A stretch of DNA of 41,353 nucleotides from the UHGV virus genome UHGV-0007119; one strand, written 5' to 3'. The notes below the pieces were generated by a model. That model searched no databases, had not been told where the DNA came from, and saw nothing but the letters and a program-made list of their open reading frames with translations. Shown piece after piece: positions 2,831 through 21,732 of the stretch. Each line of letters starts with the position of its first letter. The stretch's first letter is position 1. Source of the stretch: a virus. Position numbers and translations under genes: made by a program.

Positions 2831-3766
2831 TCAGTAGTTATGTACTGAAGGAGGTAATTCTTTATTCTTAAGTCTCATCCATGCGGAAAGATTCTTTGGT
2901 CCGTCTGGCTCATTGATATCAACATCTCGTGTGTGATTGATTAAAACGTCTCTCGCCATTCCGATAACATACGAGAACTCATGACCGTAGTCGTAGCATC
3001 TGCCGGAATAGTTCGATTGAATTTGTTTTAATGCCGGATACAGTTCGCGGAATAATGCCTGTGAGCGGTTGGCATAATCCCATAACCATACAAGGCTGTT
3101 TGCTTCTTTTGCAGAAAGCTCGTTGGTTTTCTTCTCTTGTTTGCCAATGAACTCACCTTCAAGCGGAACGCGAGCAGCAAGTGACAGTGCTTCGGTAAAC
3201 TGCTCCTCACTGATTTCTTTGTACGAACATCCAAAATGGGATTTCAGTGACGACCACATGGTGATCATCGCCTTAGCCTGTTTTTCCTTTGGCAGAGACT
3301 GACCGCGACTCATGACGAGTTGTTTAATGGCTTCCTGCTGTTCAGTGGTGATTTTACCCGGCAACGTCTTTTTAGCTTTGCGTGGGTTAACTACATGGCC
3401 TTTAGTCCAGTAGTCATACAGCACGCTAAAGCATTCCTCCTGGTACTGAATCAGTTTATCACGGATGTCAGCACGAACTTTCTCAGGGTTGATGCTGAAC
3501 AGCCATCCATTTAACTTCTTCAAAGGAAGGCAGAGTAGCTTACGAAGCTTCCCATCAGCGGCAACCATGTTCATATGAACACAGTTGAATTTGCTAATCT
3601 GCTTCATGAGTTTTGTTTGCTGCGTTGACCAGCTCATTCCAAGGTTTTCAACGATTGGCTTCATCGCAACGTATGCAACTCCGGCAGCCATGGCGGTGAT
3701 AATTTGCTGACCGTTGAATGGTACGTAAGAGGTGTTCACTGCTTCTAAAATTGCTATACTATTCAT
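2831..3766 (-). CDS. ant: Antirepressor Ant (P22 immI type)
   Basis: Start at internal Met ([21 protein letters not shown]…) preceded by GGAGAAAAACCAAC; sits directly downstream of arc as in P22 immI. Confidence 0.85.
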
Positions 3767-3834
3767 GTTGGTTTTTCTCCACGGATTTACTGACAACCGA
3801 AGCCCTGACTGTTCCCGCAGTTGGGGCTTCAACT

Positions 3835-3996
3835 TTACGCGCCAATGCGCCCTTCCTTCTTAAAGCTTTCCATTACTCTCTGATAAATCTCAGAGTTAAC
3901 AGACCGACCATTCTCTTCCGCCACCTTGCGTACCAAATCCAATACTTCTTTAGGCCACCGCAAATTGAACTGCGGCATCTTGCTCATTCCTTTCAT
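3835..3996 (-). CDS. arc: Arc repressor
   Basis: 53 aa from internal Met: [53 protein letters not shown], essentially the remembered P22 Arc. Confidence 0.9.
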
Positions 3997-4086
3997 ATTC
4001 ACCTCACAATATAGGTCCACCGTGGACCTATTGAGAATATAGTAGAGTGCTTCTATCATGTCAATACACTAACTTGGAGTGATGGC
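3997..4086. promoter_or_regulatory. immI control region (divergent Pant/Pmnt) with Mnt and Arc operators
   Basis: 17-bp palindrome AGGTCCACCGTGGACCT at 4013-4029 (Mnt operator type); ATAGTAGAGTGCTTCTATCAT at 4039-4059 is the reverse complement of the remembered Arc operator. Confidence 0.75.
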
Positions 4087-4338
4087 ATGGCTAGAGATGA
4101 TCCGCACTTTAACTTCCGTATGCCTATGGAAGTAAGGGAGAAATTAAAATTCAGGGCGGAGGCGAATGGGAGATCAATGAACTCCGAGTTGTTACAAATC
4201 GTCCAAGATGCTCTATCAAAACCATCGCCTGTGACTGGATATCGCGACGATGCAGAACGACTCGCTGATGAGCAGTCAGAGCTTGTTAAGAAGATGGTGT
4301 TTGATACGCTGAAGGATTTGTACAAAAAACCCACCTGA
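4087..4338 (+). CDS. mnt: Mnt repressor
   Basis: 83 aa, MARDDPHFNFRMPMEVREKLKFRAEANGRSMNSELLQIVQDAL…, near-identical to remembered P22 Mnt. Confidence 0.9.
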   Translation: MARDDPHFNFRMPMEVREKLKFRAEANGRSMNSELLQIVQDALSKPSPVTGYRDDAERLADEQSELVKKMVFDTLKDLYKKPT

Positions 4339-4348
4339 AGGTGGGTCC
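4324..4348. terminator. Bidirectional intrinsic terminator between convergent mnt and the lipoprotein gene
   Basis: Stem CCCACC/GGTGGG with loop TGAA, flanked by AAAAAA on the plus strand (T-run on the minus strand) and a weaker T-rich tract downstream on the plus strand. Confidence 0.55.
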
Positions 4349-4354
4349 TATTTA

Positions 4355-4774
4355 TTAGTCTTGCTTTGTTGATGGTATAAGAGATGCGTTTGCCTCTTTT
4401 GGCTTCAAGGTATACATTCCACCATTAAATGGATCTACAGCAAGCCAACCAATTAACCCACCAAACACAAGGTTCCCACCAATATACCAACCATTAGCAT
4501 TGGCTTTGATTGGCAGGGTAACTGGTTCATACCCATCCTTCTCCATAGTGATCTGGTAGCTCTTTTTGCCAAAATAGCTACCATCTGACTTGGCGAGCGT
4601 TACACCTTGTGGGGTCTTACCTTGCGCAACAATCACACCTGACTCATCTTTTACCTTAAAGCTCGCGCCAGAAGGATTGCTGTTCACTTGCACAAGTTGC
4701 GTTTCATCACCAACAATAGTTGCGCACCCAGATAACATGATAACGCCAGCAACGACGCTAATAATCCTCTTCAT
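4355..4774 (-). CDS. Lipoprotein of unknown function (moron at the P22 sieA position)
   Basis: Start at internal Met MKRIISVVAGVIMLSGC: signal peptide plus lipobox LSGC; glycine-rich C-terminal segment; AT-rich relative to neighbours. Confidence 0.7.
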   Translation of the reverse strand: MKRIISVVAGVIMLSGCATIVGDETQLVQVNSNPSGASFKVKDESGVIVAQGKTPQGVTLAKSDGSYFGKKSYQITMEKDGYEPVTLPIKANANGWYIGGNLVFGGLIGWLAVDPFNGGMYTLKPKEANASLIPSTKQD

Positions 4775-4892
4775 ATCAATTTCCATATTTAAAAAAAACG
4801 GAAACATCCTAATGACAAATCATTCAAATGTGAAGTAGGCAAAAGATGTTTACTTTTTTCATGGTATCCTGCTCAAAACTAAGGAGGTTGGT

Positions 4893-5216
4893 GTGTATAC
4901 AACAGTTATCGTGATAGCTATCGCACTCATTGTGGTTCAGTACCAACTGGCATCTTTAAAACAAAAGATATCTGACCTCAAGACTGAGAACGAAGCACTT
5001 AAAAACTCAATAAAAGATGAGAAGAACAAACTATCATTCACTATATCTGATATTGAGCAATCCATTGAAATTATTGAGAATAATATTAACAGACTAAAAA
5101 AAGAAGATATTCATGAAATCAATGACAATATCAAGGGTTTGAAATCTTGGCTTAGGAATGTAGGGCAAATCGCCACATCAACACGAGATAAGCTCAATCC
5201 ATCCATGGATGATTAA
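4893..5216 (+). CDS. Small membrane-anchored coiled-coil protein, unknown function
   Basis: GTG start 5 nt after AGGAGG (4882-4887); N-terminal hydrophobic helix (YTTVIVIAIALIVV) then heptad-like charged region; divergent from the lipoprotein gene; AT-rich. Confidence 0.55.
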   Translation: MYTTVIVIAIALIVVQYQLASLKQKISDLKTENEALKNSIKDEKNKLSFTISDIEQSIEIIENNINRLKKEDIHEINDNIKGLKSWLRNVGQIATSTRDKLNPSMDD

Positions 5217-7376
5217 TTACTCCTGTGCTATTCCGCTTAGCGACGCTACAATGCCAGCCCTCGCTAAGCGATTGAACTCTTCGTTTCCAACTGCATCACG
5301 TATTGCTTTTACGGCGGCTTTATTTGCCATAAATCTGCGTTCCGCCGCCGCTAATGCTTCTTTACTTCCGCCAGCTCTTACTGCTTTCGTGGCTTCCTGA
5401 ACTGCTTTCTCTATCGCATATCGACCGCTACGCGTGGTGGCAATTTTAGATACAGCGCCTTTTAACCCGGCGCCAACTAAAGCACCTGCGGCAGCGCCTG
5501 CAATGCCCCCTCCTGCTCCACCAACAATGGCACCTGATGTTGAGTTGGCAATTGCATTTAACACTGTTGATGTGACGTTGGATAAACCGGCATCCAGATC
5601 GCGTAGTACATTGGCAGTTCTCCCTGTTCTTTCAATATACTGCTGAGGTTTCACTGCTGCTCTTGCAAGAGTGCCATATGCATCAGCAATTCTTCCAAGT
5701 TCTGAGGAATATCGGCTAATGGCTTTTACATTTTGTGGAGTGAGTATCTCTGCGATATGGTTAATTCCTGCTGCATCAGCTTTGCCACCACGTACACCAT
5801 GCGAGATAGCATCTTGCAACATTGATGATATAGCAGGAACACGCTCTGATTCTGGCAGCGCGCGGATCATAGAATGGAACCCAGCAGGACCATTAAGACC
5901 TTTAGCTGACGATGATTGAAGGGATTTTACTCCATTCGTAATCAGTGCATCTGTTGCCAAATCACGTCCGAAAACAGACTCTGCACTCTCTTGTGCTGAT
6001 AACCTCGCTTTAGACAGATCATTAGCTTTTTGCCAGTCATCAAGAAATCCGCCGTTTTCCGCCATTGTGCGCATATCATCAGTAATTGCCCGGCGTATTT
6101 CCCCTGCTCTCCTTGCCGCATTTGCCTCTCCGCTACGCTTATATTTTTGCTCCGCATCAGCAAATTTCGCTCTCCATGCTTTCATGCCATCAAATGTTAC
6201 TCCACCTTGATTGTTTGCCTGAACAAACTGTTTCATTTCAGGAGTAAGCGGTATGCCGGCAGATCGCTCTGCCTGAATAACGGCATTACCATTTAGCATT
6301 CTTGCTTTTTGATTTGGCATTGTTGACCGCACGTCATCCCATGCCGCGCGCTCGGCATCCTTCATCTGATCAAGATTTTGAAGAATCCTTTGTTTTATAG
6401 CCGCACTTTTTTCTGATGCCGTTCCAGATGCGGCCCCAAATTCATCAAGGTTTCGACTTAACTTTGATGATATTTCGTTAAATGCTGCCTGATGGGCGTC
6501 CTGAACAATTCCTGGTGTTGATGCCAATGCGCCTTCGGCTTGTGCAATTCCACGACTTCCAGATCGCATTCCTGGTGTTAATGCGTTTATATCAATTCCA
6601 GCAGACTCAGCCGCTTTTGCTACATCTTCGGACACATTAGCGGCCTGACTGGCAATTGACTGACGCCCAGCACCTGACTTTGCCATCCTGGAAACATCAT
6701 TAGCAGAATTCAGTGCTGCACCACCAAGAGCCTGTGAAACCCTTGGAGCAATAACGCGCCCGACACCTGAAAGAACGCCTTGAGCACCAATATTGATACC
6801 ACCGTTAATGGCAGCATTTTGTGCAAAGTCGCCCTCCTGATTTGCAGCATCAGCAAGAGAACCTGCAATCATGTTTCCTGCGGAACCGATATCTCCAGCG
6901 AGCTTTGCTGGCGCTCCAGCAGCTTTTGCCGCTGTGCCAATTGGCAGGAGATACCCACCAATTGTTTCACCGGCTTGCGCGTAAGGGTCTGTAGGTCGAT
7001 CGACAGGGCGATAAACATCATCCAAAACCTTGGGGCCACCAAGCCCCTGGCTGATTGCATTAATCAGACTTGCGCCACCCTGCAATACGTCAAATGGTAT
7101 GTTTACCAGACCACGACCAGCCTGCTCTGCAATTTGCCCTGCACTTTGACCACCTGTGAGCCAATCGCCAGCTTGTTGCATCAATGATGGTTCTTCTTTC
7201 TGCTGCTGAGGCGGAGGGTATGCTGCATAAAACTGGTCTCTTGCTTCAGCCCATTTGTCACCAGCCTTAGGGGCAACAACCTCATCAAAATATTGCGCTT
7301 GAGCCTGTGCTTTCTGTTCTTCAGTTAACGCCTGATACTGTGGAGAGGCGATAACATCTTTCCATGCTTTAGCCAT
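5217..7376 (-). CDS. Ejection (E) protein, P22 gp16-like
   Basis: 719 aa, Ala/Gly/Gln-rich, last gene of the conserved P22-order block 4-10-26-14-7-20-16. Confidence 0.8.
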
Positions 7377-8740
7377 TAATCACCCCATAGTGAAGAAAAA
7401 TTACTGCTGGCTGCTGGCTGTGATACCTGTGTAGGTTGAGATTGCTGCCGCTGAGATTTACCAACATTAACGTTATATTGCTGGTTGTAATTGTCGGTAT
7501 ATTGCTGAATGTCGCGCATTGATTGTTGCAGTGCTTCAGGGCTTGAGAAATCAACCTGTGGCATACCTTGAAAATACATCTTTGCTTCTGCAACGGTGTT
7601 GATACCGGATGCCCCCATGTCTCTGGCTGCTGCAATGCCCTGATTCTGCATCTTTCCTTGGATTCGCTGTGCAGCGTTGTATAGTTTCCTCTGATCACCA
7701 CCAGATGCACGGCTACGAATATCTGCACCAAGAGCAGGAGAACCTGAAGAGCCTGTAATGCCAGTCATGAAGCCAAGATCGTCAATTGATGCACCAGAAA
7801 TTGCATCAAGATCTTTCTTCATTGCGTAATTCTGCGCGCTTGCTGCCGATGTAGCCGGAGCGGCAATAGAGCCAGCAGGGACGCGAACCATATTCCCCTC
7901 GTTGTCGATACCTTCGTAGAACGCATTAGCCCCAGCGCCGTGAAGCTTCCCGCCTACCGTTACAGTTCTGCCATCTGCTAACTGAACTGTACGCTCATTA
8001 TTCCCAACCGACCCTTTCATTGATGCTCTCTGCATCGATAAATCCTGACCGCGCATCGTGATATTCTGACCACGCGCTGTTAGCGCCTCGCCAGCCTGAT
8101 TGCTGCGGATTGTCTCTGCCAGTCTGCCTCGGTCAATCTCACGACCAGCCATCTTGTCCTGAACAGCAAACGCCTTTTCTGGTCCAAGCGCACCGAGAGA
8201 CATAGTAGTCAGCATGTGTGATAGCTGCTCTGGATTCTGGATACCTGTCTGAATCATCCAGTCAGCATTAGCACCAACGCGATTTAACCTGTCCTTGTTG
8301 TCAGTAATGAATTTACTGTAGGCTTCCGGCCCCTGAGAAAGAGCGACGTTAGCCCTCATGGCTAAATCGCCCATATCGTTGCGTTGCTGCTCATTAAGAC
8401 CTGAAAACGCCTGTTGTGCCTGTGCAACAAACGCTGGATTTTCCTGGGCAAACTTAAATAGTCCCGATGGATCACCAGAAGCCCATGCATCAGCATGAAC
8501 CTTATTGAACGCACTAATAGCTTTCTGTTGCTGTTCCTGCTTATAAATATCAGCAACTCCAGCCAGACCACGTAACGCGGTCAGACCAACGTTATTTGCA
8601 CCTGAGCGAGCCAGTTCATTGTTTTCGCGGATCAGACCAAGCGTTGCGTTAATGTCGCTTGCCTTTGGCGCATTCTCATTTTGCGCACCGATGCCAGCAA
8701 GAAACCCACCAGAATTAATACCCTGTTGCCACGTAGCCAT
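7376..8740 (-). CDS. Ejection (E) protein, P22 gp20-like
   Basis: 454 aa; synteny; start overlaps the downstream gene. Confidence 0.8.
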
Positions 8741-9901: not shown

Positions 9902-10602
9902 CAGTCAATCAGCCCATGTAATCTAAGTGCTGTTTCAAGCGCCAGAATACGCTGCCGCGCCTGCTGCAAACCTGTAGCGAGAGCTGCGACTTCGGATTGT
10001 GTGTACGTAGTGCCGACAGTGTATGACTGGTTAGCGTTGAATGAGCCAAGAAGTGGCGTACCTGTGGCTGCAGTCCATCCGGTATTTCTTGCTCCAACAA
10101 CCTGAATTCCATCAACTGAATATGATGTTTTTACATCCAGCGGTGACGCAAGAGACTGCAATTTGGTTACGGTTTTCGATACGTAATCACTCTTAATGTC
10201 AGATACATCGCTTTCTACGCCATCCAGTCTTTTGTCAACAGTGACCAGATGCGCCTGAATATCGATAACCTCATCCAGCAAGTAATCAACATCGCTACGC
10301 AGTACGACTATCTTCCCTTCGGCGGTTGTTAACCTGACCTCAAGGAGATTTATCGCTTTTGTGTTTGCGGTGATTCTTGAATCGTGATCTGCCAGTTCGA
10401 CGTCCTGTTCATCGTTTTTCACCTGAGCATCGTAAGCGCCCTGACCAGCCTGATTTGCCTTCCCGGCAATTGCGCCGACATCAGCCCCCTGATTAATGAC
10501 ATACAGCAGGTAAGACTGGCTGAATATATTGCGTGGAAGGATTGATGTATCGAGCCGCGTCGCCTGCACAATAACAGGGGTGTTGAGATTCGAATCAGCC
10601 AT
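9901..10602 (-). CDS. Tail needle protein (P22 gp26-like)
   Basis: From internal Met [18 protein letters not shown]…; matches remembered gp26 N-terminus and C-terminal …QARQRI…HGLID; TAATG overlap with the gp10 stop. Confidence 0.85.
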
Positions 10603-21425: not shown

Positions 21426-21732
21426 CTTCTACTCCGGCTTTTTTAGCAGCGAAGCGTTTGATAAGCGAACCAATCGAGTCAGTACCGATGTAGCCGATAA
21501 ACACGCTCGTTATATAAGCGAGATTGCTACTTAGTCCGGCGAAGTCGAGAAGGTCACGAATGAACCAGGCGATAATGGCGCACATCGTTGCGTCGATTAC
21601 TGTTTTTGTAAACGCACCGCCATTATATCTGCCGCGAAGGTACGCCATTGCAAACGCAAGGATTGCCCCGATGCCTTGTTCCTTTGCCGCGAGAATGGCG
21701 GCTAACAGGTCATGTTTTTCTGGCATCTTCAT
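21409..21732 (-). CDS. S: Holin/antiholin (lambda S, dual-start MKM)
   Basis: 107 aa [41 protein letters not shown]…, near-identical to remembered lambda S107/S105. Confidence 0.95.

Follow-up and report, generated by a model that had tools for sequence, protein, structure and literature searches.

The two genes at positions 4355 to 5216 of the virus genome UHGV-0007119, one encoding a lipoprotein and the other belonging to the hkcB family, are two unrelated single-gene morons that adjoin each other within the hypervariable ant moron of a P22-like (Lederbergvirus) genome of the HK620/CUS-3 type, and they assort independently of each other. The whole 41,353-nucleotide (nt) stretch is called the window here, and positions are counted from its first letter. 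Three points are added by our analysis. hkcB shares the expression cassette of P22 sieA, and this cassette fronts at least 12 interchangeable families of open reading frames (ORFs) for envelope proteins; hkcB is strictly linked to one class of gp16, the ejection protein encoded by gene 16; and the lipoprotein comes from a huge uncharacterised family, has been borrowed widely, and is found also in the slot of HK97 gp15. None of these three points (the shared cassette, the linkage to a gp16 class, and the breadth of the lipoprotein family) was found in the open-access papers searched. As for function, the reading that we favour is that of two independent morons, with hkcB as an analogue of SieA and the lipoprotein as an outer-membrane lysogenic-conversion factor; on this overall reading our own opinion is almost evenly balanced, with doubt slightly ahead. 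The features on which the argument turns are as follows.

4355-4774, minus strand: lipoprotein gene (homologue of epsilon34 gene 15), stop codon counted; matches phrog_6823 at E 1.9e-86
4724-4774, minus strand: signal peptide and lipobox, amino acids (aa) 1-17, LSGC, Cys17 followed by Ala (regular expression and hydropathy)
4415-4495, minus strand: conserved Gly-rich hydrophobic loop, aa 94-120, NGWYIGGNLVFGGLIGWLAVDPFNGGM, between strands of the predicted beta-sandwich; near-invariant in the alignment
4806-4834, minus strand: candidate sigma-70-like promoter of the lipoprotein gene, TTCACA-17-TAGGAT (promoter scan, 9/12 matches)
between 4774 and 4893: intergenic region of 118 nt
4849-4895, plus strand: PsieA-type expression cassette with a predicted promoter (putative extended -10 TGGTATCCT at 4862-4870), the Shine-Dalgarno (SD) sequence AGGAGG at 4882-4887 and GTG at 4893-4895
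4893-5216, plus strand: hkcB-family gene (homologue of epsilon34 gene 14); matches phrog_5962 at E 3.9e-58

The independence of the two genes is seen most directly in their distribution. A survey of 5,426 complete E. coli genomes found the lipoprotein gene in 129 and hkcB-like DNA in 155, with the two adjacent in only 10. In phage Gally, in vB_EcoP-720R6, and in E. coli O111:H- 11128, the lipoprotein gene has a different neighbour, which encodes either a 172-aa lipoprotein or a 129-aa secreted protein, and hkcB is found without the lipoprotein gene in CUS-3, SEN22, and HK620. In a Salmonella prophage, the lipoprotein is 98% identical to that of the window, and the adjoining hkcB is only 60% identical. 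Furthermore, among the matches listed in the cassette census described below, the lipoprotein gene lies divergently upstream of at least six different cargos of the sieA slot (30 of 123 loci). The initial annotation, made from the sequence alone, had taken the two genes for one module, and this distribution speaks against it.

Both are real genes and not chance ORFs, as indicated by their homologue clusters (715 for the lipoprotein and 21 for hkcB) and by the ratio of nonsynonymous to synonymous substitution rates (dN/dS): purifying selection acts on both, with dN/dS of 0.01-0.06 at dS 0.15-0.28 for the lipoprotein gene and about 0.14-0.6 for hkcB. Like other morons, both come and go between otherwise syntenic related phages. 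In base composition, hkcB (34.0% GC) differs from the window mean of 46.3%, the intergenic region is at 31.4%, and the lipoprotein gene, at 44.3%, does not differ; a description of both genes as AT-rich thus holds for hkcB and for the DNA between the genes, and not for the lipoprotein gene. As for signals of their own, a terminator is clear for the lipoprotein gene in every phage context, hkcB has no terminator before gene 16, and both promoters are predicted from the sequence.

In P22, the gene sieA occupies the interval between mnt and gene 16, faces gene 16 in convergent orientation across a gap of 22 nt, and has its own annotated promoter. The initial annotation had placed both genes at the position of P22 sieA. 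The region is indeed the sieA slot, but only hkcB stands in the exact place and orientation of sieA, that is, between the homologues of genes 16 and 9, convergent with gene 16, and behind a PsieA-type sequence; the lipoprotein gene does not. The 47 nt that end in the hkcB start codon (4849-4895), TTTACTTTTTTCATGGTATCCTGCTCAAAACTAAGGAGGTTGGTGTG, are identical at 45 of 47 positions to the DNA upstream of P22 sieA, the SD sequence and GTG included. The leftmost element kept across the variants of the cassette is TGGTATCCTG, which may be read as an extended -10.

For a census of this cassette, IMG/VR was searched for the exact core CAAAACTAAGGAGGTTGGYGTG. At least 120 stretches contain it, with 80 loci among the matches listed, and loci from other comparisons were added; the sample is redundant. 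In at least 131 loci, the cassette is followed by a complete ORF that begins at the GTG, and these ORFs encode at least 59 distinct proteins in at least 12 unrelated families of small ORFs. In other words, the sieA-type cassette, TGGTATCCTGC.CAAAACTAAGGAGGTTGGYGTG, is a conserved junction before the cargo families (window 4862-4895; L028, L029, L032, and L036-L115, where L numbers are our handles for the loci compared). The cargos, counted in loci among the matches listed, are as follows.

hkcB type: 32 loci
129-aa secreted protein: 27 loci
second transmembrane (TM)/coiled-coil family: 17 loci
62-aa protein with two TM segments: 12 loci
SieA: 8 loci (8/131, a minority)
75-aa protein with two TM segments: 8 loci
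116-aa protein with three TM segments: 6 loci
five rarer families: 2-5 loci each

In 11 of the 12 cargo families listed, the protein has a signal peptide or at least one TM segment. Again among the matches listed, 124 loci have enough flank, and in 108 of these the ORF converges on the C-terminus of gp16 within 3-28 nt. It was reported that sieA is present in only 22 of 66 sequenced P22-like phages (PMC10883804), so that other cargos in the slot are the rule. The second TM and coiled-coil family (109-110 aa, MLEIIVFVLGIACC...) is unrelated to hkcB and uses the same cassette; in one locus (L021, 5645-6324), it stands in tandem directly upstream of hkcB.

At the other end of hkcB, its stop codon abuts that of gene 16 with a gap of 0 nt in the window, as in all of the hkcB loci compared (25/25). 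hkcB occurs only beside one C-terminal class of gp16, the CUS-3/HK620 type, and SieA occurs beside the P22-type class in 8 of 8 loci; most of the other cassette cargos also adjoin the P22-type class, and the CUS-3/HK620-type class is also found with three other cargos. The identity of hkcB correlates with that of the gp16 C-terminus (Spearman 0.74). An exception is a Salmonella locus (L018), in which the gp16 C-terminus is 94% identical to that of the window and hkcB only 60%; such exceptions in pairwise identity show that recombination does happen at the junction of hkcB and gene 16. The association of hkcB with one gp16 class could reflect plain linkage or functional matching. It should be mentioned that gp16 of CUS-3 (L002, 4341-6500) and gp16 of HK620 (L030, 3123-5291) are about 78% identical globally in our comparison (96% over the N-terminal 200 aa and 67% over the C-terminal 200 aa), whereas Leavitt et al. 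(2024, PMC10883804) gave an identity of only 26%; different sequences or methods may explain the discrepancy.

The hkcB product is a 107-aa protein that starts at GTG 4893, with a 5-nt spacer behind the AGGAGG. Its N-terminus (aa 1-22) is the sole strongly hydrophobic segment, with a predicted TM helix at aa 2-22, and over aa 19-50 the heptad a/d positions are 70% hydrophobic against a background of 29%. AlphaFold predicts one unbroken helix over aa 2-101, with a mean confidence score (pLDDT) of 80. The family is narrow: all of its 21 clusters are 107 aa long and all come from P22-like prophages, in which the gene is convergent with gene 16. Conservation has two peaks, one in the TM segment, where I8, A9, I10, Q16, and Q18 are invariant, and one in the C-terminal tail, NVGxIAxSTRDKxNPS. 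This pattern suggests specific contacts within the membrane and a terminal interaction motif. No positive charge lies on the N-terminal side of the TM segment, and four Lys residues lie just past it. Scans of hkcB against Pfam and NCBIfam returned dozens of sub-threshold coiled-coil matches, which are uninformative; a profile search of the PDB returned designed coiled coils and vimentin, with no match beyond generic coiled coils; and PADLOC gave only coiled-coil noise against SMC-like defence proteins. Mimicry of the E. coli division protein FtsB was considered on the basis of the similar length, of a Q16-Y17 pair in the TM segments of both proteins, and of a weak Pfam DivIC match (19.7 bits against a cut-off of 28.9), and was rejected (hhalign probability 1.2%).

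For the lipoprotein gene, the listed ORF extends over 4355-4807 on the minus strand with its first ATG at 4807; alignments of homologues place the start at ATG 4774 (MKRIIS...), which gives a protein of 139 aa. The lipobox LSGC at aa 14-17 conforms to [LVI][ASTVI][GAS]C, its Cys is invariant, and Cys17, Ala18, Ile20, and Gly22 are all invariant among 42 homologues. By the +2 rule, Ala after the lipobox Cys directs a lipoprotein to the outer membrane through Lol sorting, and the protein should accordingly sit in the inner leaflet of the outer membrane. The conserved core consists of C-A-T-I-V-G directly past the signal peptide, a beta domain, and NGWYIGGNxxFGGLIGWLxVDPFNGGMYTLxP. AlphaFold predicts a beta-sandwich at aa 25-93 together with a hairpin at 121-131, both at pLDDT above 90, and between two strands a low-confidence excursion at aa 96-111, with pLDDT below 50 and both flanks above 90. 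The Gly-rich loop (aa 94-120) has 8 Gly among its 27 residues and a hydropathy (KD11) of about 2. The profile of PEGA (PF08308) matches the lipoprotein at 17.6 bits, under the Pfam gathering threshold of 20.8, and the fold class is still compatible. A sequence-profile search of the PDB with the lipoprotein gave nothing significant (best E 0.024, a Cna-B-type adhesin), and PADLOC gave no match.

Most of what the initial annotation had said of the two proteins is therefore borne out: the minus-strand lipoprotein with its signal peptide, lipobox, and Gly-rich segment; the terminator of its gene; the divergent 107-aa protein with its N-terminal TM segment, heptad-like region, and AGGAGG-GTG start; and, as a prediction, the envelope localisation of both products. 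The structure prediction that it had proposed gave the single helix and the beta-sandwich with its low-confidence loop described above. The remote-homology search, which it had also proposed, turned up no clear homology of the lipoprotein to a housekeeping lipoprotein of unrelated function; chromosomal homologues exist, and they are likewise without known function.

The lipoprotein belongs to a very large family. A word-indexed search returned homologues in 715 clusters, at 54-97% identity, from Enterobacterales and Pasteurellaceae, and an exhaustive profile search returned 5,241 clusters at 50% identity with E<=1e-3, or 1,955 with E<=1e-10. The homologues of E. coli and Proteus (69 and 71% identical to the window protein, respectively) stand in siphophage prophages in the slot of the exclusion moron HK97 gp15, between the gene for the tail chaperone gpT and the tape-measure gene. 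In Pseudescherichia, a homologue (77% identical) is placed between gpI and gpJ, and in Actinobacillus, one comes after the gene for the Q antiterminator. Enterobacter and Xenorhabdus copies lie in ordinary chromosomal, non-prophage neighbourhoods. The lipoprotein is thus specific neither to P22-like phages nor to phages. An intrinsic terminator of its own stands behind every phage-borne copy, the TAGGAT region upstream of the window gene is also conserved at the copy in the Pseudescherichia lambda-like prophage, and in E. coli genomes the recombination breakpoints of one class fall at about 4835. In anatomy, this would be a classic promoter-ORF-terminator moron, with the promoter as a prediction.

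Several further observations concern the lipoprotein family and its surroundings. The Caulobacter phage DMCA (PQ480021.1, 37258-37626) encodes a distant homologue (30% identity over 95% of the length, E 3e-4), which implies that phage carriage of the family reaches beyond enterobacterial temperate phages. In a metagenomic member of 365 aa (P0165), the lipoprotein is joined to a C-terminal OmpA-like eight-stranded barrel (PF01389, E 2.3e-15), which is either a true fusion that points to a function at the outer membrane or two genes merged in annotation; it is the one apparent domain fusion in a set of 10 longer members of the family. The E. coli siphophage prophages with the lipoprotein gene in the gpT/tape-measure slot (L009, L011, L012, and L013, about 10261-11424) also hold a porin gene (Porin_1, 357-387 aa) between gpM and gpL. 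Unrelated lipoproteins are found in the same neighbourhood of other P22-like prophages, namely one of 134 aa with the lipobox TGGC in Leclercia (L017, 5514-5918, minus strand) and one of 162-172 aa with LAGC in Gally (L003, 4540-5055, plus strand) and E. coli GMF054 (L033, 4555-5040, plus strand). The ant-moron hotspot gathers envelope proteins generally.

The wider setting of the two genes in the window is as follows.

2831-3832, minus strand: ant (immI region)
3767-3834, plus strand: sar antisense RNA, full-length (Rfam RF00262, 95.6 bits, E 1.7e-20)
3835-4059, minus strand: arc (immI region)
4087-4338, plus strand: mnt repressor gene (immI region)
4329-4346, both strands: bidirectional intrinsic terminator hairpin, common to mnt (plus strand) and the lipoprotein gene (minus strand), found by scan and annotated in epsilon34 as a rho-independent terminator
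5217-7376, minus strand: gene 16-type ejection protein, 719 aa (PF26808 in related loci)
7376-8740, minus strand: gene 20 homologue

Read on the minus strand, the terminator, ACCCACCTTCAGGTGGGTTTTTTG, is composed of ACCCACC-TTCA-GGTGGGT followed by TTTTTTG. With sar at full length and mnt, arc, and ant intact, the immI region looks functional. The virion genes of the window are about 95% identical to those of the E. coli phages HK620, CUS-3, and vB_EcoP-611R6, and positions 4340-5216 are 99.7% identical to Salmonella phage epsilon34; an epsilon34-like segment between HK620/CUS-3-like virion genes (window 1-25000) points to recent exchange between Salmonella and E. coli phages. The ORFs themselves have been annotated before, and the locus is of a known kind, the morons and exclusion genes of the P22 ant-moron region. 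The epsilon34 annotation gives gene 15 as "conserved hypothetical" and gene 14 as "similar to hkcB of HK620", so that both were already catalogued, function excepted. The epsilon34 genome paper (2008, PMC2629481) defined the ant moron as the region between genes 16 and 9, found it in ten types among sixteen genomes, and listed genes 14 and 15 under unknown function.

What, then, might the two proteins do? By position and expression signals, superinfection exclusion or lysogenic conversion, as first suggested, is plausible. Leavitt et al. (2024, PMC10883804) reported that sieA with 85 bp of upstream DNA, put in galK, suffices for exclusion and that phages escape SieA through mutations in the C-terminal portions of gp16 and gp20. 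hkcB has the position of sieA and the same promoter/SD/GTG cassette, and the lysogen therefore most likely produces the protein. It would be a bitopic inner-membrane protein, in which an N-terminal TM segment with the invariant polar residues Gln16 and Gln18 is followed by a coiled-coil-prone helix of about 80 residues and by the conserved tail. Oligomers of hkcB in the inner membrane may interfere with the gp20/gp16 conduit through which superinfecting P22-like phages deliver their DNA, above all phages with gp16 of the CUS-3/HK620 type, the class to which hkcB is strictly linked. That hkcB blocks this conduit as SieA does is, by analogy, a real possibility, although we are more inclined to doubt it than to believe it. 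The lipoprotein would be a periplasmic beta-sandwich of the transthyretin/PEGA type with a conserved hydrophobic loop, similar to a Gly zipper, that probably reaches into the membrane, and its gene a promiscuous promoter-ORF-terminator cassette that may have been acquired from a very large family found in bacteria. Most likely, the protein confers, at the level of the outer membrane, a lysogenic-conversion trait independent of phage type, for which phage or colicin exclusion and envelope or serum resistance are candidates. A bolder proposal, which we consider unlikely, is that the cassette abutting gene 16 is a plug-in socket for at least 12 unrelated small envelope proteins, each of which blocks DNA delivery, with hkcB matched to the CUS-3/HK620-type conduit, and that the lipoprotein is a broad-spectrum outer-membrane defence factor repeatedly borrowed by siphophages and podophages.

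Several points weigh against the exclusion part of the favoured reading. hkcB has no sequence similarity to SieA (hhalign probability 0.7%) and lacks the FxRYPxEAxxFNK motif, and neither protein has sequence or profile similarity to any characterised exclusion or defence protein among SieA, Cor, and the PADLOC models. The PsieA-type promoter is a prediction, and a generic promoter scan of the window did not flag it. Given the ambiguous charges that flank the TM segment, the hkcB helix could be cytoplasmic. P22 SieA already excludes CUS-3 efficiently (PMC10883804), so that the need for a dedicated excluder for gp16 of the CUS-3 type is not obvious. For the lipoprotein, the non-prophage copies on the chromosomes of Enterobacter and Xenorhabdus and the thousands of bacterial clusters suggest an ancestral role that is cellular and not anti-phage. 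Functional data on hkcB, on PEGA lipoproteins in prophages, or on alternatives to sieA were not found in the literature searched.

A somewhat unlikely but considerable alternative is that one or both proteins alter the envelope physiology for the benefit of the lysogen and leave superinfecting phages unaffected, possibly through serum or complement resistance as with lambda Bor or F TraT, through outer-membrane stabilisation, through stress tolerance, or through adhesion. For the lipoprotein, this is a serious rival in view of the breadth and extreme conservation of its family. The family is overwhelmingly bacterial, and chromosomal copies outside prophages and very strong purifying selection are expected of a conserved function of the cell more than of a protein engaged in an arms race. 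Carriage by both siphophages and podophages, which use different receptors, argues against a receptor-specific block, and the relative with an OmpA-type barrel, whether a true fusion or a joint gene call, also fits. On the contrary, two phage slots of the lipoprotein gene, the neighbourhood of sieA and the slot of HK97 gp15, are established sites of exclusion genes, and hkcB, which evolves faster (dN/dS up to about 0.5) and is confined to P22-like prophages beside gene 16, fits a phage-directed role better.

It is improbable, in our estimate, that hkcB instead serves the phage's own cycle by coupling to gene 16, either as a modulator of gp16 in assembly, ejection, or lysis, or through convergent transcription, with the 3' end of the late operon under antisense control. 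The invariant stop-to-stop junction with gene 16, the exclusive association with one gp16 C-terminal class, and the correlated identities would all agree with such coupling, but physical linkage alone would yield the correlation, the Salmonella locus L018 departs from it, and the same gp16 class also goes with three other cargos. hkcB is also oriented against the late operon and stands behind the cassette used by the prophage-expressed SieA, and many P22-like phages do without it. Least probable of all, and largely refuted by the distribution, is the module of the initial annotation, taken here as a two-component, spanin-like bridge of the lipoprotein and the TM/coiled-coil protein across the envelope. 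Its appeal lies in an architecture that superficially recalls an i-spanin and an o-spanin, in weak Rz-like PHROG matches (E about 2e-3), and in the divergent adjacency of the two genes in the window, epsilon34, and Salmonella prophages. Such a module would hardly be adjacent in so few of the E. coli genomes that carry its parts, nor would the lipoprotein accompany at least six cargos and occur in siphophage tail operons and chromosomes without hkcB, or hkcB occur without the lipoprotein. The window has a normal S/R/Rz lysis cassette at 20518-21732 (Rz at 20518-20952), so that the two proteins are not the spanin of this phage; Cys is absent from hkcB, and the lipoprotein is not rich in Pro.

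If hkcB and its slot-mates are expressed from the shared cassette, they make up a short list of candidate DNA-entry blockers for the P22-like phages, only about one-third of which have sieA, and the genetic system available for SieA is suited to these candidates. With escape mutants, the route of the gp7/gp20/gp16 conduit through the envelope could be traced. For a very large uncharacterised family of bacterial lipoproteins, the lipoprotein would offer the first functional handle. Were neither gene to affect phage infection, the hotspot would have to serve more than exclusion.

Finally, the two proteins can be set beside known systems. The Rz/Rz1 spanins resemble them in combining a bitopic coiled-coil membrane protein with an outer-membrane lipoprotein; unlike the spanin genes, the genes studied here are divergent, lie outside the lysis cassette, are distributed independently, and are not nested, and there is a separate Rz, no Cys in hkcB, and no Pro-rich o-spanin, so a spanin pair was rejected. 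Compared with the beta-sandwiches of PEGA, transthyretin-like, and CnaB proteins, the lipoprotein differs in its inserted Gly-rich loop and its invariant C-A-T-I-V-G N-terminus, which are specific to its family. The Gly-zipper outer-membrane lipoproteins SlyB and Pcp reportedly combine a lipid anchor, a small beta domain, and a Gly-rich hydrophobic segment, and the lipoprotein is like them in architecture only, with a Gly-rich segment that could enter the membrane. As a homology, this candidate failed: the signal peptides alone align (hhalign probability 2.3%), and no Pfam glycine-zipper model matches at E<=1. Cor of phi80, N15, and HK022 and Llp of T5 are likewise small outer-membrane lipoproteins of phages and prophages, encoded by accessory genes; homology to Cor was also rejected, as the alignment covers the signal peptide only (phrog_1119, aa 1-20; NCBIfam Cor, E 0.074, aa 1-30) and the mature domains are unrelated, and the lipoprotein is not known to have a connection with FhuA. 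HK97 gp15, an inner-membrane exclusion moron derived from YebO (Cumby et al. 2012, as summarised in PMC3594210), shares with the lipoprotein homologues of E. coli and Proteus siphophage prophages the slot between the tail chaperone and tape-measure genes, the character of a captured bacterial gene, and a terminator of its own. The equivalence seen is one of slot; gp15 is a small inner-membrane protein and the lipoprotein a predicted outer-membrane protein with a beta-sandwich. The closest counterpart of hkcB is P22 SieA, which has the same position, the same orientation convergent with gene 16, and a near-identical promoter/SD/GTG cassette, and which is also a small membrane protein of a P22-like prophage; SieA has three or four TM segments, whereas hkcB is predicted to have one, followed by a long helix.

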